Numbered from the stretch's first letter, positions 893-59,415 are shown. The stretch: DNA of 60,182 nt from Candidatus Fraserbacteria bacterium (GCA_037443265.1 JBBIOR010000011.1:1-60182), one strand, 5' to 3'. Made by a program: numbers and translations. Notes: generated by a model from the sequence alone, not told the origin.

Positions 893-1225
893 ATGACGAG
901 CGACTTGGCAGAGAAAGCATGTGTCCCCTGCAAGGGAGGAGTGCCTCCTCTTAAGGGCGAAGAGCTGAAAGCGCTCTGGGCAAAGCTCGATAGCAGCTGG
1001 CAGGTCATCGAGGAGCATCATCTGGAGAAGGCATTCAAATTCAAAAATTTTCGACAGGCGCTGGATTTTGTGGTCAAAGTGGGAGAGCTGGCCGAAGAGC
1101 AGGGCCACCATCCCGATATTTATTTGAGCTGGGGAAAAGTTAAGATCACCATCTGGACCCACAAGATCGATGGCCTCACCGAGAGCGACTTCATCCTCGC
1201 TGCCAAGATCGATAGATTATTCTAA
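893..1225 (+). CDS. phhB: Pterin-4-alpha-carbinolamine dehydratase
   Basis: CxPCxGGxPPL N-terminus, EEQGHHPDI and WTHKIDGLTESDFILAAKID motifs. Confidence 0.93.
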   Translation: MTSDLAEKACVPCKGGVPPLKGEELKALWAKLDSSWQVIEEHHLEKAFKFKNFRQALDFVVKVGELAEEQGHHPDIYLSWGKVKITIWTHKIDGLTESDFILAAKIDRLF

Positions 1226-1827
1226 AGCGCGCTCCGGAAAAGCCTGAGCCAGCGTTTGACGCGCCAGCAGAATCCCAAGCAGCACCAGAGCCCCTCCCGC
1301 CGCTTGCATCCCCCCAGAGGCTCGCGGAGCAGAACCCAGGCCAGAAGAGCGGCCATCACGGGCTGCAACAGTAAAGCCACAGACGTAAACGAGGCCGGAA
1401 GATACGCCAGGGCATACGCGATGAGCCCCTGCCCGCCAGTGTGCGAGATCCAGGCCAGCCCTACCAGCACTGCCCAGCCGTCCAGGGTCTCTGCGATGAG
1501 ACTCTCCCGGAAGAGGAGCGCCATGAAAAACAGAGCGATGCACGTGACGAGTCCGCTGCCGGCCATGACGCGGGCCGTGGTCAAAGAAGCCCTCAGTCTC
1601 TTGATGCACAGGATGTACCCGGCATAGAACCCAGCAGTCAGCAATCCCAAGCCATCCCCCAGCACGTGCTGCGGACTCAGCCGAAAGCTGGCACTGATGA
1701 CCAACGTGGCTCCCCCAAGCGCCAGCACCAATCCCGTAATGAAGCGTATGCTCACGAAGATGGGCGCGAAGGCGATGCCAACAGCCCCAAGCAGCAGGGC
1801 CAACAGGGCCGATCTTGATGGAGGCAT
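1217..1827 (-). pseudogene. EamA/DMT family transporter, frameshifted and apparently internally deleted
   Basis: DMT motifs (GQGLIAYALAYLPA, LQPVMAALLAWVLLRE). The last TM helix (MQAAGGALVLLGILLA) lies in another frame after a G6 run at 1310-1315. Even repaired it is only about 203 aa. Confidence 0.7.
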
Positions 1828-1870
1828 GTTTAGAGCCTGGCAGAGTCTAGCTGCCGCGAACGTCTTCAGC

Positions 1871-1916
1871 AAGTGTGATCTGCATCCTAGTCACAGCGGC
1901 CAGAATTCACTATGTT
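1871..1916 (+). promoter_or_regulatory. Putative CRP-family site and -10 box (class II geometry)
   Basis: aagTGTGAtctgcaTCctAgtc (1871-1892), centred 41.5 nt upstream of the +1 inferred from TATGTT (1911-1916). Confidence 0.45.
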
Positions 1917-1948
1917 GAGATCAAGTCTCGGCAGAGGGGGTGAAGTAG

Positions 1949-2020
1949 GTGAAAGGGAAGGCCAAGAAGAAAAGCCCGAAGAAGGCCGCCAAGAAGAGCT
2001 CGAAGAAGGGGAAGAAGTAG
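1949..2020 (+). CDS. 23-aa Lys-rich micropeptide MKGKAKKKSPKKAAKKSSKKGKK (histone H1-tail-like)
   Basis: SD-like GAGGGGGTG (1934-1942), GTG start, TAG stop, 13 of 23 residues Lys, followed by a terminator. Too short for the ORF track. Confidence 0.7.
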   Translation: MKGKAKKKSPKKAAKKSSKKGKK

Positions 2021-2042
2021 CTCTGCCGCAGCCAGCTGGTGT

Positions 2043-2085
2043 TGCGAAAGGCCACCACGGATAGACGGTGGCCTTTCGCATTTCT
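2043..2085 (+). terminator. Intrinsic terminator after the micropeptide
   Basis: Perfect 14-bp stem TGCGAAAGGCCACC/GGTGGCCTTTCGCA, 10-nt loop, then TTTCT. Confidence 0.75.
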
Positions 2086-2145
2086 CACGGCGCAAAGACG
2101 ACTGTCCTTGGCTCTGCCCATCGCTGGCGATAGCCTCCCTCCGCC

Positions 2146-3459
2146 TTGAATAGCTTTCACCCATTTGCGGGAAGGCGCGTCACCGTCTTAGGGGCCGGCA
2201 AGACCGGCCGAGCCGTCGCGCGCTTCCTCGCCCCGCAGAAGGCCCATGTCTTTGTGAGTGATCGGGCAGAGCTTCCCCCTCTGCTGAAAGAGGAGTTTTC
2301 CAAGCTGGGCATCGAGTACGAGCAAGGTGGCCACAGTGAGCGCGCTCTTCAAGCAGATCTGATCATCCCCTCTCCGGGTGTCCCGGCCTCTTCTCCCGCG
2401 CTTGTTGAGGCCCACAGGCGAGGCATTCCCATTTGGGGCGAGCTGGAGCTGGCCTATCGCCTCTGTCCCAGCGAGAAGATCATCGCCGTCACAGGCACTG
2501 TCGGCAAGACGACCACCACCCATCTCATAGCAGAGCTCCTCAAAGCGCGCGGTTATCCCGTGGTAGTCGCAGGCAACATCGGAGAGCCCTTCATCTCTCA
2601 ACTGCCAAAGATCCGCACTAAAACCATCGTCGTCTTGGAAGTGAGCAGCTATCAACTAGAGCAGGTCGAGCTCTTTCGGCCCCATATCGGAGTCTTCACG
2701 CGTTTTGCGCCGCATCACTTAGATCGTCATGGCAGCCTTGAGAGATATTTCTCAACCAAGTGCCGGCTGTTCGCCCAGCAAAGCGAAAGTGATTTCGCCG
2801 TGGTACATCGTGACATTGAGCTTCCCCGCTGGGTGCAAGCCCGGGTCTTCCGGTTCTCCGCTGACGAGTTGCAAGAGTTGGAGTTGCCCACTCATCAGCG
2901 AGAGAATCTGGCCGCCGCCCTGCGAGCCGCTTGCTGGATCGATGCTCAAATCACCCTAAAGCATCTGGATTTGAAAAGAGCGCTCCAGCTTCCCCATCGC
3001 CTGGAGTTCGTAGCTGAGATGGATGGGGTGCGCTTCTACAACGACTCAAAGGCCACCAGCACGGCTGCGACACTGGCTGCTATCTCCTCCTTTAAGGAGC
3101 CACTCGTGCTCATTCTGGGCGGCTACGATGATGGGGAAGATCTCTCGAGGCTGGCGCAGGCCATTGGACACAGCGATGTCCGGGCCGTCTTCCTCTGGGG
3201 CCAGACCCAGGAGCGCTTCTCTAAAGTGTTCAGGGCCCTAGGCTACCCGCGCTTCCAGATCGTACAAAGCGTGCACGAGGCCATTGAAAAGGCTCTGCGG
3301 CTTAGACCAAAGATCTGTCTGTTCTCGCCGGCTGCGCCCAGCTTCGATCGCTTCAAAGACTACGAGGAGCGCGGCCAATATTTCAAACATGTCGTGCGTT
3401 CCTATCTTCCCAAGACAGCCATCACCCCCTCAAGTGATCAACTGGCACAGGCGCCTTAG
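2146..3459 (+). CDS. murD: UDP-MurNAc-L-Ala:D-Glu ligase
   Basis: GAGKTG, SPGVP, VTGTVGKTTT, LEVSSYQL, YNDSKAT and SPAAPSFD motifs. Confidence 0.95.
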   Translation: MNSFHPFAGRRVTVLGAGKTGRAVARFLAPQKAHVFVSDRAELPPLLKEEFSKLGIEYEQGGHSERALQADLIIPSPGVPASSPALVEAHRRGIPIWGELELAYRLCPSEKIIAVTGTVGKTTTTHLIAELLKARGYPVVVAGNIGEPFISQLPKIRTKTIVVLEVSSYQLEQVELFRPHIGVFTRFAPHHLDRHGSLERYFSTKCRLFAQQSESDFAVVHRDIELPRWVQARVFRFSADELQELELPTHQRENLAAALRAACWIDAQITLKHLDLKRALQLPHRLEFVAEMDGVRFYNDSKATSTAATLAAISSFKEPLVLILGGYDDGEDLSRLAQAIGHSDVRAVFLWGQTQERFSKVFRALGYPRFQIVQSVHEAIEKALRLRPKICLFSPAAPSFDRFKDYEERGQYFKHVVRSYLPKTAITPSSDQLAQAP

Positions 3460-13586: not shown

Positions 13587-13615
13587 TTGCTCCGCCCCAA
13601 ATGGCTGTGTATAAA
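13587..13615 (+). promoter_or_regulatory. sigma70-type promoter for the PKD protein
   Basis: TTGCTC-17nt-TATAAA. Confidence 0.5.
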
Positions 13616-13657
13616 CGAGGCGTATCCGCAGCACACGAGAGGGTGAACTGCAACGCC

Positions 13658-15037
13658 ATGTTCGAGCGCATTGTCATTGCCATTCTAATTCCAGCCTTGC
13701 TCTGGCTCACCTCCCCTAGAGCAAGCTGGCCTGAGGAATCCGAGAAAGAGCGGGGCTCTGCTGCTGTGCAAGGCGCTCCTTCCCTAGAGCAGATGGCTCT
13801 GCGAGCGTTTCAAGCCGTGCTGCTTCTGACAAAGAGCGATGAGAACAGCATCATGATCTTCAGGCGCGAGGCTCCCCAGCAAGTCCAACCCGGCGAGGTC
13901 TTCACCGTCACAGAGACGCTGGAAGCCAAAGTGCAGCTGGAGTTCGCGGCCATCGTCTCCGCCCTTCCGGCCAGCTTTGAACTCGTCAGCGGGCAGCTGA
14001 GACAGTTTCAAGTCGGAGGTCTTAAGCCCGGCGAGACTCTCATTAATATCTATGAGGTGCGGGCTCCCAATCAAGAAGGGAGTTTTACACTTTCAGCCAA
14101 CGCCCGCGGCAAGCCCGTGGGCGCCGACAGCCAGGGGCTGAGTGTGACTCTTTCACTTGAGGTGACTAAGGAGGCCCCTCCTCCGCCTCCGCCTCCGCCA
14201 CCGAATCAGAATCCCGTGGCCAGCTTCACTTTCTCTCCCCTCGATCCCAAAGCGGGAGACCTCATCACATTTGATGCGTCCGGCTCCACAGATCCCGATG
14301 GAGTGATTGTCAACTACCGCTGGAATCTGGGCGATGGAACCATCCTGGAGGGTCCAGATCAGATCATCGTCACCCACACCTATCAGAAAGAAGGCGCTTA
14401 TCAAGTCACGCTCATTGTGATTGACGACCAAGGTGCAGCTTCCGCTGCCAGCTCGGCCGTGATCGCCGTCGCGGCCCCTCCGAAGCCTACGATCCTCGGC
14501 CTCCCCCTGGAGGTGGCGATCGCCATCGGTGCGGTGCTCACAGGAGCTGCGATCTACTTCCTCGTGCGCGCGTTGTTCTTCGCGCGTGCACCTTCAGATG
14601 GCGCAGGGCAAGAAGGCGTAGATCTGACAGGGGCCTTGAGAGCAGAAGTCGAGCGCTTCCTGGCAGCTTCCGGTCTGCCCGTAAAGGAAGTCTCTGCCAC
14701 CCAACTCGTCGAGCGCGTGGATGAACTCAGCCGAGCGCGCTGGGTGCGGACGCTGGCCAACAACTCACTCTTCATCGTCTCGCGCGGGGAAGGAACTCTC
14801 ACGCTCAGGGCCTATGGCGATATGAGTGAGCAAGAGCAGGCCGGTCTTGACTTCAGCAGACTGGAGGCCGCCTCGCTCATTGATTATATCTCGCCCCGGG
14901 TGGCCCCGGGAGATCAGATCCTCCGGCTCCGCTGGACGAGCCAGGACGGGCAGACCTTCGAGAGCTACGCCGTCGTGGATGCTTCCGGCCGGCTCAAGTT
15001 CGACACCTTCATGAGTCTTGTGCCTCTGGCGCTTTAA
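13658..15037 (+). CDS. Type I membrane protein: signal peptide, Ig-like domain, poly-Pro linker, PKD domain, TM helix, cytoplasmic domain
   Basis: PKD signature NQNPVASF..FDASGSTDPDG..YRWNLGDG..HTY..G.Y.VTL.V.D, P8 linker, TM helix VAIAIGAVLTGAAIYFLV. Confidence 0.85.
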   Translation: MFERIVIAILIPALLWLTSPRASWPEESEKERGSAAVQGAPSLEQMALRAFQAVLLLTKSDENSIMIFRREAPQQVQPGEVFTVTETLEAKVQLEFAAIVSALPASFELVSGQLRQFQVGGLKPGETLINIYEVRAPNQEGSFTLSANARGKPVGADSQGLSVTLSLEVTKEAPPPPPPPPPNQNPVASFTFSPLDPKAGDLITFDASGSTDPDGVIVNYRWNLGDGTILEGPDQIIVTHTYQKEGAYQVTLIVIDDQGAASAASSAVIAVAAPPKPTILGLPLEVAIAIGAVLTGAAIYFLVRALFFARAPSDGAGQEGVDLTGALRAEVERFLAASGLPVKEVSATQLVERVDELSRARWVRTLANNSLFIVSRGEGTLTLRAYGDMSEQEQAGLDFSRLEAASLIDYISPRVAPGDQILRLRWTSQDGQTFESYAVVDASGRLKFDTFMSLVPLAL

Positions 15038-15038
15038 A

Positions 15039-17777
15039 TTAATCCACGCGGAGTCGCACGCTTCTCTTGTTGTTCTCCTCGTTCGACTCCGGGATGTCCT
15101 CATTGAAGTCGGCCACGACGATGATCTCGAATTCTCCAATCCACAGGAACGACGTATCCAGCTGAGCGGTGAGCGTCTTTCTCTCCCCCTTGGCCAGCCC
15201 AGGCAAGTTGAAGCCGGCAAAGTTGACGGGCTTGTCCGTGCCGACCCGCTTCCAGAAGAAGACCACGCGGAAGGGGCCCGCGTCTTGAGTGCCGATGTTG
15301 GCCACCTCCGCCCGCACTTCGACGATGTCCCCCGCGATGGCCTGCGGGGGCGCAAGAACGAGGCTAGCCACGGTGAGATCGACGCCTGTGGTTCTGGCCT
15401 CTCCTGTGATCTCCAAGGGCAGAGCTGCGGTGTTGTTGAGCTCGTTCTCCTCTTCCACGCGGCCAGCCAGGCGGCCCTGCTCCACGGGATCTATGACGAC
15501 TTGAACGAGATAAGATCCGGGCTCGAGATTCGTGGTGTCTAGGACGGCTTTCGCCTGCAGCACCACGCCTGTGCCCAGGCCCGGGAAGCTCGTGCGCTCT
15601 CCGAAGGGGACGCAGCTGGTCTCTCCGACCCGCTGGCGGCAGAAGGCTACTTCAAAGGCACCTGCGGCTTCCAGGCCAATGTTCGTGATCTCCGCTAAGA
15701 GCTCGACTTTTGCCCCTCGGGTGACTCTGGGCGAGGCAGCTAGGGCCGGGTCGACGAAGCGCAGGCCCGCGGGCACAAGATCCGGCCCCCGCACAAAGAG
15801 CGCGGCCTGCGGATCAAGCCCTGTGGTAAAGACGTTGTTCCCTTCGCTGAGCTCATTGACGATCTGCTCCGAGTCGGCCACGATCTGGATCTGGTAGAAG
15901 CCGGGGCGCAGGGCCGTCGTGTCCAGTCCGACGGTGAGAAGGGCCTGCTCGCTGATCAAGAGGCCACTCACAGATCGTCTGGCAAAGACCGTGAAGATCT
16001 CCTCATCGAGTCGGCGCAAGGAGTACTCGACCGTGAACGAACCGGCTGCCCGCTCTCCGATGTTGACCACCGAGGCCGAGATGCTCACCAGCGCGCCGCG
16101 GCGGACCTCCAGGGAGGGCTGAATCCGCACGCTCGCGGGATCGATGATCAAGTCCGGCTTGCGCGGCCTAAGCAGTGTAAAGGCGCTGACCAACTCGTTG
16201 TTGAAGTCGTCCAGCTCAGGCACTCTGCCGTCCGGATCGACGACGACGCGCACTTGGTAGTTGCCCGGAGCCAGATCCCCAAGGGGCAGCGTCCCCGCCG
16301 CCTGGATGCCCGTGCCCGGTGCCAGCTCGGCCACCGTGCAGCTCGTCGTACAGGCGATGGGAATCCAGCGCACGCTGCCCATCAGGCGATAGAAGAAGGT
16401 GATTTCAAAAGTGCGGGCTGCGATCGCCCCTGTGTTCACAATCTCGGAGAGGACGCCCAACTCACGATTGCTCTCTAGCTCTATGGGCGACCTCGGGTTG
16501 ACGATCAGGCCTTTGGGGTGCAGCTCCGCTCTCCGCGGGGTAGGAGTCTGCAGAGTCAGAGCCGTGCGGATCTCGTTGTTCGTCTCATCCCGCTCGGAGA
16601 TTTGATTGTTGGGGTCCACTACAATCCGGATGAGATGAATCCCCACATCCAGCAAAAGCTCGGCTGTCTTGAGGGTGCCTTCAACCGTGGCGGATTGATT
16701 CTCTTCCAAAGTGAGGGTCTGTCGATCGAATGGGGCTCCATTCACCAAGAAGGCCACTTCCACATTGCGGGCGGTGCCTTGACCCGAGTTCTCGATGGTC
16801 GCCATCACCTTCACGGTGTCCCCAGCGCGGGGCAGGGGCGGATTGAAGAGGAGTCCCACCGGATGCAGCTCCGGACCCTGGATGGAGAGCACCGCGATCA
16901 GCTCGTTGTTGGCCTCATCTTGTTCTTTGATTTGCCCTGCGGGATTGTCGGGATCCGGCGGATCGACCGTGGCTTTGATCAAATATATGGCGGGGTCCAA
17001 GGATGATATTAAGAGTCTAGCCCCATCGTCCTTGGTGCCGCCTTTGGGCAGCCCGCCGGCGAAAGCGTTGGGCCGCGCGCGATCGAACTCCACGAACTCC
17101 GAGGGGCAAGAGCTCTGTCCCTCCTGGAGCCGGCAGTAGGAGAAGCTCACCCGGAAGGGGCTGGCATCGCGATCGCCGCTGTTTGTAATCGTAGCCGTCA
17201 CAAGCACCGTCTGATCTGGGCTAGTGAGGAACACGGGTGAGGGGGGAGTGAACGCCAGAGCCACCGGTCGCAAATCCGGCTTTCCCAAGAGCGACGGCTG
17301 CACGAGCAGGGACGTGATCAACTCGTTGTTCGTCTCATCGGATTCCGGGATCTGATCGTTGGAGTCGACCACAACCCGGATCTCATAGATGTCCGGGGCC
17401 GGAATCAGGCTTGGACTTGATGTATCAAAGATCCCCTGGACTTGGATCTCCTGTTCTTGTGGGCTCAGTCCCCGCAGCTGGGTGGTTGAAAAGCTGATCC
17501 AGCTGGGCACGGTGCCCCCTTTGGGGCGCGGTCTTAGGAAGAACTCGACTTTGAACTCAGCTGCCGCGCTTTCTCCGCTGTTTTCCAGCTTGGCGACCAC
17601 GGTGACGATGCGTCCTTGATCGACGGGTGAGGCCGGGTCCAGAAGGAGGGTCGTCGGGTGCAGCTCGGGCTGGCTTCCCGCGACCTCCTGGCTCTGGCTG
17701 AAGAGGAAATAGACTCCACCGACGAACAGAAGCGTGCCACTTAAGAGGGCAAGCCCCCGGAGTAGCCTCCTGGCCAT
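15039..17777 (-). CDS. Exported protein with 7 tandem CARDB-like Ig domains
   Basis: N-terminal hydrophobic helix, then 7 repeats of P[ED]L..N.G..Y...V.D...E..E.NN. SD AAGGAGGT. Confidence 0.88.
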   Translation of the reverse strand: MARRLLRGLALLSGTLLFVGGVYFLFSQSQEVAGSQPELHPTTLLLDPASPVDQGRIVTVVAKLENSGESAAAEFKVEFFLRPRPKGGTVPSWISFSTTQLRGLSPQEQEIQVQGIFDTSSPSLIPAPDIYEIRVVVDSNDQIPESDETNNELITSLLVQPSLLGKPDLRPVALAFTPPSPVFLTSPDQTVLVTATITNSGDRDASPFRVSFSYCRLQEGQSSCPSEFVEFDRARPNAFAGGLPKGGTKDDGARLLISSLDPAIYLIKATVDPPDPDNPAGQIKEQDEANNELIAVLSIQGPELHPVGLLFNPPLPRAGDTVKVMATIENSGQGTARNVEVAFLVNGAPFDRQTLTLEENQSATVEGTLKTAELLLDVGIHLIRIVVDPNNQISERDETNNEIRTALTLQTPTPRRAELHPKGLIVNPRSPIELESNRELGVLSEIVNTGAIAARTFEITFFYRLMGSVRWIPIACTTSCTVAELAPGTGIQAAGTLPLGDLAPGNYQVRVVVDPDGRVPELDDFNNELVSAFTLLRPRKPDLIIDPASVRIQPSLEVRRGALVSISASVVNIGERAAGSFTVEYSLRRLDEEIFTVFARRSVSGLLISEQALLTVGLDTTALRPGFYQIQIVADSEQIVNELSEGNNVFTTGLDPQAALFVRGPDLVPAGLRFVDPALAASPRVTRGAKVELLAEITNIGLEAAGAFEVAFCRQRVGETSCVPFGERTSFPGLGTGVVLQAKAVLDTTNLEPGSYLVQVVIDPVEQGRLAGRVEEENELNNTAALPLEITGEARTTGVDLTVASLVLAPPQAIAGDIVEVRAEVANIGTQDAGPFRVVFFWKRVGTDKPVNFAGFNLPGLAKGERKTLTAQLDTSFLWIGEFEIIVVADFNEDIPESNEENNKRSVRLRVD

Positions 17778-17822
17778 GCAGACCTCCTTTGTTTTCCAGT
17801 CCGTCAAAGAGCCCCTAATGTA

Positions 17823-17851
17823 AGTATAAAAGACCAAGGTTCCCAAGCCAA
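17823..17851 (-). promoter_or_regulatory. sigma70-type promoter for the 7xCARDB gene
   Basis: TTGGCT-17nt-TATACT on the minus strand. Confidence 0.5.
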
Positions 17852-17900
17852 ATAGGGCAGGTAGGGGACCCTTCCCCTCAGCCCGCTCTTCCTTCCTTCC

Positions 17901-18518
17901 TTACGGACGCTCGCAGTAGGTCGGCTTGTTCTGCGCGTTCTTGCAAGACTCGAGGATCTTGCTGAGCTGGCGGTTCGCCACTTGGATCAGCTGGTCTTCC
18001 GTGAGCGCATTCGGCGCCGCTTTAGCAGTCCGGAGGAAGATCACTAGGGTTAGGCGCTGCAAGACGATCTGTTGCTGCCCGTCTTCGAGCTGGAGCAGCA
18101 AGATCTTGTCCGTCTCTTTCTGGAGCGTCTCCGGCAGAAGATTGGGCCTCTCCCGGACTTCCGCCAGCAGATCCCGGGAGCTCTGGACGGGCTTAGCAGC
18201 GAGCAGTGCACTTAGAAAGCGATCCGCTGGCTCCCGGGCCTCAAAGTCGAGCAGGCCGATGATAAGGGCGATCTCCGTGTTCGTGTTTACGTAGGTGGCC
18301 ACCATGGTCCGCTTCTCCGCGCCGGGGGGCTCTGGGTTGAGATGATCTAGGGTGCGGACCACCCAATCCTCGCCGAGCCCCAGCTCCTTGGACAGCGCGT
18401 TCAGCTCTTCCTGGGTGAGGAGCAGGCTTTGAAGCTGTTCCAGGACGCTCGACTGACCCAGGCCCACCATGACAATGAGTAGCGGGAGCAGCAGGCCCGT
18501 CAGTACCTTGCGCCACAT
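17901..18518 (-). CDS. Exported hypothetical protein with a C-terminal Cys pair
   Basis: SD AAAGGAGA, signal peptide MWRKVLTGLLLPLLIVMVGLG, dedicated promoter. Confidence 0.8.
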   Translation of the reverse strand: MWRKVLTGLLLPLLIVMVGLGQSSVLEQLQSLLLTQEELNALSKELGLGEDWVVRTLDHLNPEPPGAEKRTMVATYVNTNTEIALIIGLLDFEAREPADRFLSALLAAKPVQSSRDLLAEVRERPNLLPETLQKETDKILLLQLEDGQQQIVLQRLTLVIFLRTAKAAPNALTEDQLIQVANRQLSKILESCKNAQNKPTYCERP

Positions 18519-18540
18519 GGTCTCTCCTTTCTTTGCGCGA

Positions 18541-18569
18541 ATTATATACCCATTCTGCTCCGAAGGCAA
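18541..18569 (-). promoter_or_regulatory. Leftward promoter of the divergent CARDB locus
   Basis: TTGCCT-17nt-TATAAT on the minus strand. Confidence 0.7.
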
Positions 18570-18624
18570 TTTCCCGCCAAGCGCTCTATAAGAGATACAC
18601 GCGGCTTTCGGAAAGGTTTCCTGA

Positions 18625-18653
18625 TTGACAGCACCCGCTGGATGGTGTAGGAT
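18625..18653 (+). promoter_or_regulatory. Rightward promoter of the divergent CARDB locus
   Basis: TTGACA-17nt-TAGGAT. Confidence 0.72.
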
Positions 18654-18692
18654 ATTTCTTACGAAGAGCGGAAGAAAAACGGGGTGACATCC

Positions 18693-20789
18693 ATGAGGCC
18701 AGGCAGAAGAGGCCAGCGACTGCGACCCATCCTGCTGGGGCTCTTGGCCATGCTTCTGATCGCCCTTACCGGCAGCCGGGATGCGATCACCTACGGGCAA
18801 GCCATAGCCAATCTACTCGTAGAAGGCATTGAGCTTCAGCCATTGGGGTTCTTCCTGGAGTCGCCGGGGCCGCCTGTCACAATCCGGGCCACGGTCCGCA
18901 ACGACGGAACAGCCGATGCGCAGAATTTTGACGTGAGTATGCGCATCCGCCGCGAGGACGAATCCACTTTCCGCCCGGAAGAGCTCTGTCAGTTCATGGG
19001 GGCCTCCAGCAGCTGCAAGAGCTTGAGCCTGCGAGCTGGAGAATCTCAGCTGGCCATCGGGTTTTTGGCCACGAGCAACTTGAGCGTAGGGCGCTACATC
19101 ATCCGTGTATCCATCGATCTGAAGGGCCTTGCCCAGTCGAACCAGGAGGACGACTCGCAAGAGAGCCTCTTGCTCATCGGCATCCTTCTGCCAGAGTTCC
19201 ATCCCATCTCCTTGACGTTCAGTCCGCCCTCGCCGGTGCCTCAAGGAGTTCAGTTGACCGTCAAAGTGCAGATTGAGAACACCGGCCGGCCTACGAATCC
19301 CGAGCTTGAAGCCAAGTTTGAATACTGCTTGGAGAGCCCAGCTTGCATTGACTTCAGCAGTCGGGGCTTCCCTGCGGATGGCATCAAGCGCTTGACTTCC
19401 AGTCAGACCCTGCCCCTCAGCCAGGGCAGGACGCTCGAGGTCTCCAACGTGCTTGACACCACAGACCTCCAGATCGGGCGATACTCCTTCCGCGTCTCGA
19501 TCCGAGCGCTCTCTTCGTCGGGCAGCGAAGTGGACGAACTCGATCGGGCCAACAACGAGATCTCGACCCGCCTGACCGTTGCCCCACCTGGAGCGGGGGG
19601 TCTCAACACACCTCTCTGCCAACTCTCCGGGAATGTCATCACGCTGGGGCGGGGTGTGGGCACGGTGGAGAACCGCCTTGTGCCGATCATCTATGTCGGG
19701 GTGAAAGATACAGCCGGCAGAGTGAGCCTGCACGCCTTCAAGAAGACCGACGTCGATCAAGTCCAGCCGGGCTCCGTCTGCCCGGAGATCACAAACTCGC
19801 CCATGAATCTTCCAGCAGACATTACGTCCTTTGCGCTCGACCAGAAGGTGAAGCTGCTCTACATTGGGCTGGCGAACGGTCAGCTGGTGGGGGTCAACGT
19901 GGATAGCCCAGAGACGCTCGTCGCGACCTCTCCGCGCACGGTGGCCGCGGCGGCTTTGTCCTCTATGGCGGCGCGCGTAGCCGCAGCCAATATGGGAGAA
20001 GTCTTCATCGGGTCGGCGGATGGGAATCTTTATCGGGTGCGGGTCACAAAAGACGCGGCGGGCAGTCTGAGTGTGACCTCCTCGGAGATGTGTGCCCGCC
20101 TGGGAAGCCCCATAAACGCCCTGCTCCTCTTTCAGGGCAACACGTATTTTGGCACGAGCAGCGGCACGGTCTTCCGGATGCCTGAAGGATCCTGTGCGCA
20201 AAGCCAGGCTAGTTTGTTCTTCACCGCGGGTCGCGGCGTCCGAGCGCTGGCCACGCATCGGCTGGTCTTTGGCCGGATATTTGCACCTCAGATCCTAGTG
20301 GGCCTGGAAGACGGCAAGCTCCACGTGGTCAACATCTTTGGCTCGGACTACAGTGGCTCTCCGGTGGCGCTCGCGCCCGGGGCGGCGATCACGGCCCTGG
20401 CTGTCAACAAGAAGACTCGGGTGGTCTACGCTGGAACCGCCGCCGGTTCCATCCATGCACTGGATTTGAGCAGCCGGCTGCCCAGCTGCCCCAATCCCTT
20501 TGTGGTACCCACCCAGCAGGCCGTCAACGTCTTGGCGGTGGACGACGGCGGACAGGGGGATCTACCGGCCACGGGTCTCGTCTTCGCCGGCTCCGAGGAC
20601 GGCAATCTCTATGTGATGGGCTCAAGCTGCACGCGGGCGACCGATCCGCGCCCTACGCTGGGACCCATTCGCGCCCATATGATCCTCGACCCCGTGGTCG
20701 GGTTCTTCGGGGTAGAGGGAATTCAGGCGCTCTATGGGGGCGGCCAGGGACTCTTCAAGCTCACCCTCCAGCTATCTTCGATCCCCTGA
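18693..20789 (+). CDS. Exported protein: 2 CARDB-like domains plus a C-terminal WD40/PQQ-like beta-propeller
   Basis: Signal peptide, ATVRNDG and ELDRANNE repeats, then blades LYIGLANGQL, VFIGSADGNLY, YFGTSSGTVF, LVGLEDGKLH, YAGTAAGSIH, FAGSEDGNLY. Confidence 0.82.
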   Translation: MRPGRRGQRLRPILLGLLAMLLIALTGSRDAITYGQAIANLLVEGIELQPLGFFLESPGPPVTIRATVRNDGTADAQNFDVSMRIRREDESTFRPEELCQFMGASSSCKSLSLRAGESQLAIGFLATSNLSVGRYIIRVSIDLKGLAQSNQEDDSQESLLLIGILLPEFHPISLTFSPPSPVPQGVQLTVKVQIENTGRPTNPELEAKFEYCLESPACIDFSSRGFPADGIKRLTSSQTLPLSQGRTLEVSNVLDTTDLQIGRYSFRVSIRALSSSGSEVDELDRANNEISTRLTVAPPGAGGLNTPLCQLSGNVITLGRGVGTVENRLVPIIYVGVKDTAGRVSLHAFKKTDVDQVQPGSVCPEITNSPMNLPADITSFALDQKVKLLYIGLANGQLVGVNVDSPETLVATSPRTVAAAALSSMAARVAAANMGEVFIGSADGNLYRVRVTKDAAGSLSVTSSEMCARLGSPINALLLFQGNTYFGTSSGTVFRMPEGSCAQSQASLFFTAGRGVRALATHRLVFGRIFAPQILVGLEDGKLHVVNIFGSDYSGSPVALAPGAAITALAVNKKTRVVYAGTAAGSIHALDLSSRLPSCPNPFVVPTQQAVNVLAVDDGGQGDLPATGLVFAGSEDGNLYVMGSSCTRATDPRPTLGPIRAHMILDPVVGFFGVEGIQALYGGGQGLFKLTLQLSSIP

Positions 20790-20801
20790 TAGGAGCTTCC
20801 C

Positions 20802-22559
20802 ATGAATCAAAAAACACGCCGATGGCGCATGCCGCTTAAGATCGTACTCCTCCCCCTGGGCTTTGTTTTCATCTTGCTGCTCCTGGGCTCCGCTCAGCAG
20901 AGCCGGCCCGACATTCAGGTGACGACCCCGATCACGCTCGAGGCGCCCAACAGGCGCGGAGACACCATCACCGTCGAGCAAGGCGAGTCTGTGACGCTGG
21001 TGGCGACGATCTCCAATCAGGAGACCGTGCCGGTGGCGGCCGCCATTGACATCGCCTTTCAAATCCTCAGGAACGGGGAAGCAGAGCCTCGAGACTTAGG
21101 CCCTACTGAGGTGACTTGCCAGACGCTCCCTGATCCCGATGACTCTTCGCGATGTCGTCTGCCGGGGCTGGGAGCTCGGGGCGAGCCCAACGACCAATTG
21201 CAACTCAAAGCTAAGCTCAATACGGCCTCACTCAGCCCAGATCAATACACGCTGTTCGTCCTCGCAGATCTGCAGAACAGAGTGGCTGAGACCGATGAGA
21301 CAAACAACTCCGGCCAAGGGCGCCTGATCGTCAGCCCTCGGTTGCCCAATCTCACGGTACTGGCTGAGTTTGTGCTCATTCCAGAAGAGCCCCAGCAGGG
21401 AGATCTTTTGACGGTGGAGTTTGTGATTGAGAACGATCGTCGCGGGGCAGATGTGACCGTGCCGTTCAATATCAGCTTGGCTTTCCGACCCCTGGGCGAG
21501 GATGCGTTTACGCTGCTGGTTCCGCCGGCTCTTTTCTGTCCGGATTGCACGGTGGCGGGCCTGCCGGGCTTCAACCCCCAATTGCCAAAAGATCAACAAC
21601 AGAATCGCAAGAAGATCCAAGCCCGATTCACTACCCTCTTGCTCACCCCGGCTGAGTATCAGCTTCGGATCGCGGTGGACTCCGGCAACGACGTGGAAGA
21701 AGCCAACGAGAGTGATAACGTGCTCACGTTTGATTTCCGTCTGGGCGAGCCGCCGCGGAATCTCTCCCTCTCTGAGGGTCGACTGACGCCGTCTGTGCCT
21801 TCTCCAGAGAGCTTGATCTCGCTGGCCTTTGCCATTCGCAATGAGAGCATGGCGGCCGCGACCGGAGTAGATCTGAAATTTTCGCTGAGGCAGCCGGAGA
21901 CGGGGACAGTCTTTAATATGCGAGATCTGCCGGGTTTTGCCTGCGCCCCGGCCGGAGCTTTAGAGCCCAACAAGGACAAATGCGCCGCTTTGACGATCGG
22001 GGCCAACGGGTCTCTGGAGATCAGAGCGCAGTTCTCCGCGGCGAATTTAGCCTTGGGCCGCTATGAACTTGAGATTACCGTCGATCCACCGGGTCCTGAG
22101 ACGCCCCGTGGGAAGATCGCGGAGATCAACGAAGGGGACAACACATTGCTCCTCCCCTTCACGTTGGTGGAGCCCGGCCAGGTCGTCCCGCAGACCGGAC
22201 CTGAGCTACATCCGACTGGCCTCTCGTTGGTCCCCAGCTCGCCGATCGTCCAGGGCCAAAAGGTGCTCGTAAGCGCAATAATTGCCAACAGTGGCAATCA
22301 AGACGCAGGGGAATTTCTCGTGGAGTTCTTCATCCGCCGCGAGGACGTCGAGCAGCCGCAGAGCTTTACGCTCTTTGGCCGGCAGACCATCGCCGGCCTA
22401 AGGGTGGGCAAGACGATCGAAGCGAGAAGAATTCTGGAGACGGCCGGCCTGGAGCCCGGCCTTTACGCCGTCAAGGTCGTGGTAAACTCCCTGGGGCAAG
22501 CGGAACTCGACAGAAACAACAACACGATCATTGCGTTTCTCACTGTTTTGAAGCCTTAA
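20802..22559 (+). CDS. Exported protein with 4 CARDB-like domains
   Basis: Signal peptide, repeats ending ETDETNN, EEANESDN, EINEGDN and ELDRNNN. Confidence 0.85.
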   Translation: MNQKTRRWRMPLKIVLLPLGFVFILLLLGSAQQSRPDIQVTTPITLEAPNRRGDTITVEQGESVTLVATISNQETVPVAAAIDIAFQILRNGEAEPRDLGPTEVTCQTLPDPDDSSRCRLPGLGARGEPNDQLQLKAKLNTASLSPDQYTLFVLADLQNRVAETDETNNSGQGRLIVSPRLPNLTVLAEFVLIPEEPQQGDLLTVEFVIENDRRGADVTVPFNISLAFRPLGEDAFTLLVPPALFCPDCTVAGLPGFNPQLPKDQQQNRKKIQARFTTLLLTPAEYQLRIAVDSGNDVEEANESDNVLTFDFRLGEPPRNLSLSEGRLTPSVPSPESLISLAFAIRNESMAAATGVDLKFSLRQPETGTVFNMRDLPGFACAPAGALEPNKDKCAALTIGANGSLEIRAQFSAANLALGRYELEITVDPPGPETPRGKIAEINEGDNTLLLPFTLVEPGQVVPQTGPELHPTGLSLVPSSPIVQGQKVLVSAIIANSGNQDAGEFLVEFFIRREDVEQPQSFTLFGRQTIAGLRVGKTIEARRILETAGLEPGLYAVKVVVNSLGQAELDRNNNTIIAFLTVLKP

Positions 22560-46725: not shown

Positions 46726-46810
46726 GCCGAGGTGGCGGAACTGGCAGACGCGCACGTTTGAGGGGCGTGTGGGGTAACCCGTGGGGGTTCGAGTCCCCCC
46801 CTCGGCACCA
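46726..46810 (+). tRNA. tRNA-Leu(GAG)
   Basis: Acceptor stem GCCGAGG/CCTCGGC plus ACCA, anticodon arm CACGT-TTGAGGG-GCGTG, long variable arm, GGTTCGAGTCC. Confidence 0.96.
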
Positions 46811-53425: not shown

Positions 53426-53649
53426 CGGCGCGAGCGGCTGAGCCAGCCCATCCCGATCACGAAGGCCATCGCCAGCACCAAGATGACCCACACGAAGGCT
53501 GCCGTCGCCCACGGCCCCAGCGTCTGCTGTTGCTGTGCTGACGGCGAGGACGTCGCCTCCTGGGCCAGCCCCACAGCTCCCACCATAAGCAGCAACAAGC
53601 ACAACACGACAGCCACCTGCCGGCCCATTGGCGCCTTGAACTTCTTCAT
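53422..53649 (-). CDS. Small membrane protein (signal peptide plus C-terminal TM helix)
   Basis: SD GGGGAGG, two hydrophobic segments, basic tail SRSRR. Confidence 0.7.
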   Translation of the reverse strand: MKKFKAPMGRQVAVVLCLLLLMVGAVGLAQEATSSPSAQQQQTLGPWATAAFVWVILVLAMAFVIGMGWLSRSRR

Positions 53650-54645: not shown

Positions 54646-55773
54646 TCAGAGGGCTGCGAGGGCGTTCTGGAGATCTTCCCTGAGATCATCTGGGTGTTCG
54701 ATGCCTATAGAGAGGCGCAAGAGGTTGTCTTTGATGCCGCGGCGGGCGCGCTCCTTAGGCGGCATCGAGGCATGGGTCATGCTAGAGGGGTGATTGATCA
54801 AAGACTCAATTCCGCCCAAGCTTTCTGCCAGCTTGATCACCTTCAGATTTTTCAAGAAGCGCTCCACCTCTCCCTTGAGTTCAAAGGAAAGCATCCCCGA
54901 AAAAGCCTTCATCTGGCGGCGGGCTATCTCATGGCCGGGGTGCGACGCCAGCCCGGGATAATAGACCCGCTCGATGTGGGGATGCTCGCTCAAGAACTCG
55001 GCAATTCTCTGGGCGTTCTCTGAGTGAGCTCTCATGCGCACGGCCAGCGTCTTGATCCCACGGTGCACCAAAAAACAATCGAAGGGCGATGGGACGGCTC
55101 CCACGGCCTTTTGAATGAATTTGAGCTCCTGATAGAGCGTCTTGTCGTGGGTGATCAAGGCCCCGCCGATCAAGTCGCTATGGCCGCCCAGATATTTGGT
55201 CGTGCTGTGCAGCACCACATCCGCACCCCACTCGAGCGGCCGTTGCAGATAGGGCGAGGCAAAGGTGTTGTCCACCACGAGAAGAGCGCCCCGCTTGCGC
55301 CGAGCCACCCCCGCGATATCTGTGATTTTGAGGAGGGGATTGCTGGGCGTCTCGATCCAGATGAGCTTCGTGTTCTTGCGCAGGACGACGTTTTCTAGCT
55401 GGCTTGTGTCCACATAGCTGAACTCGAGCCCGTATTTGCTATATATCTCTTCAAAGAGCCGGTAGGTGCCCCCATAGAGATCCTCACAGGCGAGGACGTG
55501 ATCGCCCGGACTAAGCAGAGTTAAGACGGCTGCCGTGGCGGCCACGCCTGAGGCGAACGCGACGGCATAGTGCGCGCCTTCGAGGGCGGCTAAAGCTTGT
55601 TCGAGTCTTTGTCGGGTGGGGTTATCCGCTCGGCTGTAGTCGAAGCCCTTATGGACGCCAGGGGCCTCTTGCTCGTAGGTGGAGGTGGCATAGATGGGGA
55701 AGATGACGGCTCCGGTGGCGGGATCGGGCTCGCTGCCCACGTGGATGGCTTGGGTCTCAAAGCGGGGACTCAT
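54646..55773 (-). CDS. Cystathionine gamma-lyase/synthase family PLP enzyme
   Basis: [32 protein letters not shown] and AESLGG motifs. Confidence 0.9.
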
Positions 55774-55979
55774 TTATTAATAAATTGAGCGTACTTGCGC
55801 TGGAAGAGCTCCACGCGCCCGGCGGTGTCCACAAACTTCTCTTCCCCGGTGAAGAAGGGATGGCACTTGGAGCAGATGTCCACGTGTAGATTGTCCCCCG
55901 TCGAAAACGTCTCGAACTCGGCTCCGCAGTTACAGCGGATGGTCACGCGCTTCATCTCCGGGTGGATTCCGGGTTTCAT
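55770..55979 (-). CDS. rpmE: 50S ribosomal protein L31 (Zn-binding type)
   Basis: [21 protein letters not shown] and GRVELF motifs. Confidence 0.97.
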
Positions 55980-59312: not shown

Positions 59313-59398
59313 GCCGAGGTGGCGGAACTGGCAGACGCGCGGGACTCAAAATCCCGTGGTGTGCAAACACCATGAGGGTTCGACTCCCTCCCTCGGCA
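59313..59398 (+). tRNA. tRNA-Leu(CAA)
   Basis: Acceptor stem GCCGAGG/CCTCGGC plus A, anticodon arm CGGGA-CTCAAAA-TCCCG, long variable arm. CCA not fully encoded (CCT). Confidence 0.95.
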
Positions 59399-59415
59399 CC
59401 TAAAGAAAGATCCTC

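Follow-up and report, generated by a model that had tools for sequence, protein, structure and literature searches.

Gene content of the murD locus

Approximately 97% of the window, by which is meant the whole 60,182-nucleotide (60 kb) stretch of DNA that was analyzed, is coding. The region considered here separates an EamA/DMT transporter gene from the divergently oriented murD-ftsW-murG-murC-murB-ftsQ-ftsA-ftsZ cluster, in which the ftsQ product is an FtsQ-type POTRA protein. A micro-ORF lies directly upstream of this cluster, its stop codon being followed 126 nt downstream by the murD start, and the placement "just upstream of the division cluster" given in the original prediction was thus correct. 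The features of the locus are as follows.

1222..1872 (-): EamA/DMT transporter gene, apparently decayed; a 216-aa ORF divergent from murD
1888..1916 (+): possible weak promoter, TAGTCA (1888-1893), 17 nt, TATGTT (1911-1916); 8/12 matches to the sigma-70 consensus, found by eye and below the scan threshold
1921..2121 (-): rival antisense ORF, Phe-rich; 66 aa from ATG 2121 to TGA 1921, or 79 aa from GTG 2160; the prediction of the gene caller
1934..1943 (+): Shine-Dalgarno-like site GAGGGGGTGA, 5 nt 5' of GTG 1949
1949..2020 (+): micro-ORF; GTG start, 23 codons, TAG stop at 2018-2020
1957..2017 (+): degenerate tandem repeat inside the micro-ORF; period 24, 2.5 copies, 72% matches; a period of 12 is also present
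2039..2149 (+): second small ORF; GTG start, 36 codons, same frame as the micro-ORF, spanning the hairpin
2043..2080 (+): perfect 14-bp hairpin; arms 2043-2056 and 2067-2080, loop of 10 nt, -26.3 kcal/mol when folded alone
2081..2086 (+): short U-tail TTTCTC, with 4 T in 6; weak for an intrinsic terminator
2146..3459 (+): murD, first gene of the division/cell-wall cluster; TTG start without a Shine-Dalgarno site

The closest homologs of the transporter (P0004-P0008) are 288–314 amino acids in length and 62–66% identical to it, the best named one being from Candidatus Fraserbacteria RBG_16_55_9. The copy in the window lacks approximately 85 residues between two FAPIFV motifs, a gap such as a deletion between short direct repeats could have left, and its C-terminal 20–24 residues are specified in another frame (1244-1315). 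On the basis of these lesions the gene looks like a pseudogene and, because this neighboring gene is decaying, the locus as a whole may be degenerating. A gene for pterin-4a-carbinolamine dehydratase adjoins the transporter on its far side from murD.

The TTG start of murD was examined for a ribosome-binding site, together with the starts within the first 60 codons, and the best pairing had an energy of only -4.5 kcal/mol. The sequence around this TTG (2133-2149) contains, just upstream of it, an anti-Shine-Dalgarno-like string, CCTCCCTCC, which reads GGAGGGAGG on the other strand. The second small ORF ends here, its TGA (2147-2149) overlapping the murD start in the tetranucleotide TTGA. Its GC3 is 0.67, versus 0.61 in the other two frames.

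At 13601-22559, adjoining the division and replication genes, is a cluster encoding large CARDB- and PKD-domain proteins (478, 935, 701 and 585 aa).

The micro-ORF and its flanking signals

The elements of the micro-ORF described in the original prediction (a Shine-Dalgarno sequence, a 6-nt spacer, a GTG start, 23 residues including 13 lysines and no acidic residue, and a stop) were all found where they had been placed: GAGGGGGTG occupies positions 1934-1942 and is followed by AAGTAG (6 nt) and GTG 1949. TAG is also the codon directly 5' of this GTG, leaving a frame that is open for exactly 23 codons. The predicted peptide, MKGKAKKKSPKKAAKKSSKKGKK, contains 13 Lys in 23 amino acids (57%) and no Asp, Glu or Arg; its mass is 2.5 kDa, its pI 11.1 and its charge about +12.5. 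Eleven of the Lys codons are AAG and two AAA, AAG being also the preferred codon in the genes of the window (437:191), and the GC3 of the micro-ORF is 0.92. When all six frames of the window were scanned, no other stop-to-stop frame reached a Lys content of 45% across 18 residues.

The KKxx periodicity that had been noted in the peptide is present and derives from the 12/24-nt repeat; since the period of the tandem repeat is a multiple of 3, it reappears in the protein as an xxKK pattern. The lysine tract is a purine tract and is open in all three plus-strand frames, for which reason the lack of stop codons within it is no evidence of coding, and as a degenerate tandem repeat it could be neutral. 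Read-through or recoding of the TAG codon was ruled out, because TAG ends 15 of the 49 Pfam-supported genes. A Glu-rich plus-strand frame of 50 aa, starting at ATG 1912, was also rejected, because no Shine-Dalgarno site precedes it and its Glu codons, counted by eye, are mostly GAA, the genome preferring GAG (915:367).

The Shine-Dalgarno-like site at 1934-1943 has a duplex energy of -15.6 kcal/mol, calculated with a generic 16S 3'-tail. It ranks sixth in strength among such sites on both strands of the window, and is the sole plus-strand site at -11 kcal/mol or better within 1873-2145. Of 5027 start-like triplets (ATG/GTG/TTG), seven, GTG 1949 included, are preceded at a spacing of 3–9 nt by a duplex of -15 kcal/mol or lower. 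Four of the other six are plausible true starts, namely those of hemB (38831), murG (4720), a crp-like gene (45946) and acpP (50554; PP-binding match, 3.4e-17), while one of the remaining two lies inside tmk and the last opens a 3-codon ORF. The purine-rich context of the site makes Shine-Dalgarno-like strings likelier, which weakens this argument.

The perfect 14-bp hairpin that had been reported downstream was confirmed, with arms at 2043-2056 and 2067-2080. It begins 22 nt past the stop of the micro-ORF. The 80-nt fold around it has a z-score of -3.6, and none of 200 shuffled sequences was as stable. The window contains six perfect hairpins with stems of at least 9 bp, and among these it alone reaches 11 bp or more and it alone falls outside coding sequence. 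The arm is unique to this hairpin at up to 2 mismatches, apart from one hit at chance level (3 matches versus 2.7 expected), and a mobile element or repeated hairpin was rejected on this ground.

The original prediction assigned the micro-ORF its own terminator with a T-rich tail. Here the hairpin stands, and the tail is generously described as T-rich: TTTCTC would form a weak U-tail. On the minus strand the hairpin is followed by ACACCAGCTG, which has no U-run, and a tail starting with U is therefore found on the plus strand only. The terminator scan made no call at 2043-2080, because the 10-nt loop exceeds the limit of 8 nt set in the scan. As the neighboring gene is divergent, there is no plus-strand gene upstream which the hairpin could serve to terminate.

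The strength of the hairpin relative to everything else in the region is also an argument for regarding the locus as a non-coding small RNA or a bare terminator, a reading that we place on the unlikely side. A plus-strand transcript ending at the hairpin would then be produced, in which the purine tract would work as RNA, or as an unstructured platform for the binding of protein or RNA, or have no function, and the ORF and the Shine-Dalgarno-like string would be by-products of purine richness. This agrees with the tandem-repeat nature of the tract, with its being open in all three plus-strand frames and with the lack of unusual structure in the rest of 1900-2100 (z = -1.16; 21 of 200 shuffles as stable), which is what a single-stranded purine tract should exhibit. 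It accounts less readily for the fact that the sole plus-strand Shine-Dalgarno site at or below -11 kcal/mol is ideally spaced from the only start codon of a stop-bounded frame. Nor was an Rfam family recognized: none reached its gathering score, and at E-values up to 10 only chance-level fragments of miRNAs and CsrC appeared.

Elsewhere in the window the Rfam scan at gathering threshold returned only a tRNA-Leu (CAA) at 59313-59400. A second tRNA-Leu, with anticodon GAG, at 46726-46810 (+) was found by ARAGORN and not by that scan.

Since the gene upstream is divergent, the promoter of the murD operon must lie within 1873-2145. The promoter scan of this interval gave no promoter-like site at threshold. 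Two weak candidates were recognized by eye, the one at 1888-1916 listed above and TTGGCT-17-TAGCCT (7/12), which lies between the hairpin and murD. The description of the micro-ORF as a monocistronic unit did not hold up well in view of these results, of the weak U-tail and of the missing Shine-Dalgarno site of murD; indeed, because murD has no such site of its own, read-through into it is a live alternative.

An unlikely but credible explanation is accordingly one in cis. The micro-ORF would be a leader ORF of the murD-ftsZ operon, the transcript of which starts upstream of it, and the peptide would have no role in trans. The Shine-Dalgarno site would load ribosomes, the hairpin would be a partial terminator, a pause site or a stabilizer, and translation of the leader, possibly continued by ORF 2039-2149, would set the output of murD. 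In addition to the weak U-tail, the unaided murD start, the constraint on the position of the operon promoter and the failure of the scan to detect a promoter-like site between hairpin and murD, this explanation draws on the arrangement of ORF 2039-2149, which is in the frame of the micro-ORF, runs across the hairpin and meets the murD start in the TTGA overlap. Lysine and its precursor diaminopimelate are, moreover, cell-wall building blocks.

The locus shares with the leader-peptide attenuators of the his, trp and pyrBI operons a short ORF, a run of one codon, a Shine-Dalgarno site and a hairpin before the operon. Those systems, however, possess an antiterminator which overlaps the leader ORF, whereas none was found here, and 22 nt separate the stop of the ORF from the hairpin. 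When the 3' arm was blocked, the 5' arm paired weakly and locally (-33.2 versus -52.4 kcal/mol); classical attenuation is unsupported because no antiterminator competes with the hairpin, and the distance of 22 nt would keep a ribosome stopped at TAG from touching it. As to the cognate amino acid, murD-ftsZ is not devoted to lysine biosynthesis; lysine and diaminopimelate in the cell wall would provide an indirect link. We know of no lysine-codon attenuator of a mur operon. ORF 2039-2149, for its part, has neither a Shine-Dalgarno site nor a family match, and the long-range pairings that could be drawn in the leader were not beyond chance. In 1.5% of random windows a pairing was found as good as, or better than, that between the Shine-Dalgarno site and CCUCCCUCC, which lies upstream of murD. 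The inverted repeat CGGCAGAG / CUCUGCCG (1924-1937 and 2021-2037), which flanks the micro-ORF and is paired in the minimum-energy fold, was equaled in 6.5% of them and is not significant.

The antisense frame and searches for homologs

The original prediction had remarked that the micro-ORF was absent from the ORF track. This fits the content of the protein database, in which the antisense 66-aa ORF is entered (P0001), as a prediction from this contig alone, and no protein of 22–70 aa matches the peptide. The C-terminal half of the antisense product mirrors the lysine tract and is approximately half Phe, a proportion seen very rarely in real proteins. Since the two frames share their third codon positions, neither GC3 nor codon log-odds (15.1 bits for the Lys frame versus 13.7 bits for the antisense Phe frame) can separate them.

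We consider it highly improbable that the minus-strand ORF is the real gene, specifying a small Phe-rich membrane protein, possibly type-I-toxin-like; the plus-strand RNA would then act against it as antisense RNA, and the Lys frame would be its mirror image. The ORF was chosen by the gene caller, its codon log-odds are close to the value for the Lys frame, and the transporter ORF, which shares its strand and reading frame, follows 49 nt downstream. It also has a Shine-Dalgarno-like site, GGAGGGAGGC at 2142, with an energy of -14.8 kcal/mol. This site is, however, 11 nt from ATG 2121, beyond the 3–9 nt observed for real starts, and the perfect 14-bp hairpin would fall inside the coding sequence. 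No homolog was found among 5.8e9 clustered proteins, no Pfam or NCBIfam family was matched, and the atlas recognition value of 1278 lies in the range typical of shuffled sequences, the best hit (0.80) being at chance level. Examined as a candidate small hydrophobic type I toxin, the ORF was without known toxin family or homolog; the plus strand opposite it carries the hairpin as the putative terminator of an overlapping antisense RNA.

An exhaustive HMMER search over 1.84e9 representatives likewise revealed no homolog. Its single extra hit, P0123, a 2629-aa "protein" built of tandem repeats, is an artefact: it reached E 6.6e-20 with the antisense ORF without any one stretch that matched, an example of how repeats inflate whole-sequence HMMER scores.

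Nor does the antisense ORF represent the N-terminal portion that the transporter would have lost. Read-through with TGA translated as X gained no EamA match, and the N-terminal motif of the EamA homologs maps to 1818-1747, inside the 216-aa ORF.

Conservation of the plus-strand micro-ORF was investigated by scanning genome contigs for MurD. This gave 131 pattern matches and 93 relatives, from which 80 loci (684,913 bases) were kept. The nearest six are from Bipolaricaulota/Acetothermia, with MurD proteins 47–51% identical; they carry different genes upstream of murD, almost no intergenic space and no transporter. From their N-terminal sequences we take these upstream genes to be BamA-like, OmpH-like, FabZ-like and formiminotransferase-like. 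Given the best named transporter homolog, from Fraserbacteria, the window comes from an uncultivated bacterium close to these candidate phyla.

A short Lys-rich ORF was present in none of the six Bipolaricaulota loci and in none of the 80 loci overall; because the nearest six are both distant and non-syntenic, the result neither refutes nor supports the micro-ORF. The scan for Lys-rich frames detected nine, all of at least 78 codons, in five of the 80 loci (L035, L040, L042, L050 and L059) and none in the nearest six (L001-L006). BLASTN and TBLASTN comparisons of the region with the loci gave low-complexity matches only, the best being one of 45 nt at 80% identity in L058 (E 0.001) and those to long Lys-rich frames in L042.

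The genes upstream of murD in five relatives do not end in a Lys-rich tail, and there is thus no sign that the micro-ORF is the remnant of a C-terminus. This result counts against the quite improbable view that the region is the debris of a decaying locus, in which an AAG tract, expanded like a microsatellite, and an orphan hairpin would persist and no product would be expressed. Such a view would suit the adjacent EamA gene, with its internal deletion of about 85 residues between FAPIFV repeats and its C-terminal change of frame, as well as the degeneracy of the repeat tract and the occurrence of the tract in none of the relatives. It leaves to coincidence the presence, within 150 nt, of a top-ranking Shine-Dalgarno site, its correct spacing, the exact stop-to-stop framing and the only long hairpin of the window.

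The large protein database was searched with a 40-codon query, in which the TAG was read through as X, against targets of 22–70 aa. One candidate shared words with the query and no protein of this size was matched at E-values up to 10, a weak negative since ORFs of less than 30 aa are seldom predicted. The peptide matched no Pfam family at E-values up to 1, no NCBIfam family at E-values up to 10 and, using phmmer, no PDB chain at E-values up to 10. No match was obtained in plasmid (BLASTN) or phage (TBLASTN) collections, where the low-complexity filter of BLAST limits the test.

The predicted peptide and its possible role

The ORF, the Shine-Dalgarno site and the hairpin are real and non-random, and these signals favor a small plus-strand expression unit over the antisense 66-aa ORF. 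We tentatively prefer the reading, possible rather than probable, that it is a translated plus-strand micro-gene, whose product would be a disordered polycation with a polyanion as its target. Transcription and translation of the unit, the stability of its peptide and any binding partner are inferred. Ribosomes would be recruited to GTG 1949 by the strong Shine-Dalgarno site, the 23 codons, 13 of them for Lys, would be translated, and translation would terminate at TAG 2020. Approximately 65 nt past this stop, the 14-bp hairpin and its short U-tail would end or pause transcription. Because it has no hydrophobic core, the peptide would be disordered; it would act in trans, through electrostatic binding to a polyanion. 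A first guess at the partner, by analogy with the tiny basic ribosomal proteins, would be ribosomal RNA, followed by DNA or polyphosphate. A role in nucleoid condensation or ribosome association, as put forward in the original prediction, would be pure inference. Against this reading stand the weak promoter candidate and U-tail, the use of GTG as start and the lack of any sign of conservation in the loci compared. Overall, the micro-ORF is a reasonable candidate micro-gene, plausible and unproven.

The closest functional analogs would be bS22 and bL37, the latter of approximately 24 aa; Thx of Thermus is another tiny basic ribosomal protein. Of these, bS22 is 33 aa with 55–65% basic residues, and bL37 is similar (PMC10085706). 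The peptide resembles these proteins, found in Actinobacteria, Bacteroidota and Borrelia, in its size class (24–33 aa) and in being over half basic. Their genes are easily overlooked in annotation, and they are held in rRNA cavities by charge. They are, however, Arg-rich and helical, with hydrophobic residues, whereas the predicted peptide contains Gly, Pro and Ser but lacks Arg as well as any large hydrophobic residue. In addition, the peptide shows no match to a solved ribosomal chain or model and its gene is not located beside ribosomal genes.

Next in closeness would come H1-like proteins rich in Lys (Hc2 and AlgP, for example). With this group (chlamydial Hc1/Hc2, Pseudomonas AlgP and the tails of HupB/HupS) the peptide has in common repeats rich in Lys, Ala, Ser and Pro, including one SPKK, and the action to be expected by analogy, i.e. 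the binding of polyanions (DNA or polyphosphate). The designation "histone-H1-like" was not borne out beyond this, resting as it does on composition and the one SPKK with no match to a Pfam or NCBIfam family. H1-like proteins are much larger (about 100 aa or more), with their basic regions usually existing as tails on folded domains or as long repeat arrays, whereas the peptide comprises 23 aa bounded by stops. The length of Hc2, for instance, is given as 165–237 aa (PMC2848022). By the tests run, all of them computational, the peptide is a member of neither the ribosomal nor the H1-like group. In the literature searched, as far as its texts were accessible, we encountered neither a free-standing, Lys-rich micro-peptide of this type nor any account of small proteins of the Bipolaricaulota.

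A more far-reaching version of the preferred reading, which we regard as rather improbable, is that a free-standing, Arg-free, polylysine-type peptide of 23 residues is a genuine product of this uncultivated Bipolaricaulota/Fraseribacteriota-like bacterium. It would be a minimal polyanion binder, either a new ribosome-bound micro-protein or a "histone-tail-only" organizer of the nucleoid or of polyphosphate, expressed from the leader of the division operon, which would couple its amount to growth and division. If real, the gene would be among the shortest in bacteria and its product a natural "tail-only" polycation, in which low-complexity lysine repeats act without a folded domain. It would also add to the tiny basic proteins missed by annotation pipelines, the mirror-image ORF having been called here in its place. 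Its position before murD-ftsZ would also leave to be explained how the division operon is started in this candidate phylum, since murD is without its own ribosome-binding site. If the gene is not real, the locus serves as a warning: because the antisense frame has the same third codon positions, either strand can mislead a gene caller or a human reader in GC-rich genomes.

Other small minus-strand ORFs of the window include the gene for ribosomal protein L31 at 55770-55979 (69 aa; Pfam 4.4e-31), the ATG of which is preceded at 5 nt by a Shine-Dalgarno site. A 74-aa ORF at 53428-53649, lying in a 254-nt gap, has a strong Shine-Dalgarno site (-14.2 kcal/mol, spacer of 5), hydrophobic stretches and no significant family match; possibly it specifies a genuine small membrane protein.
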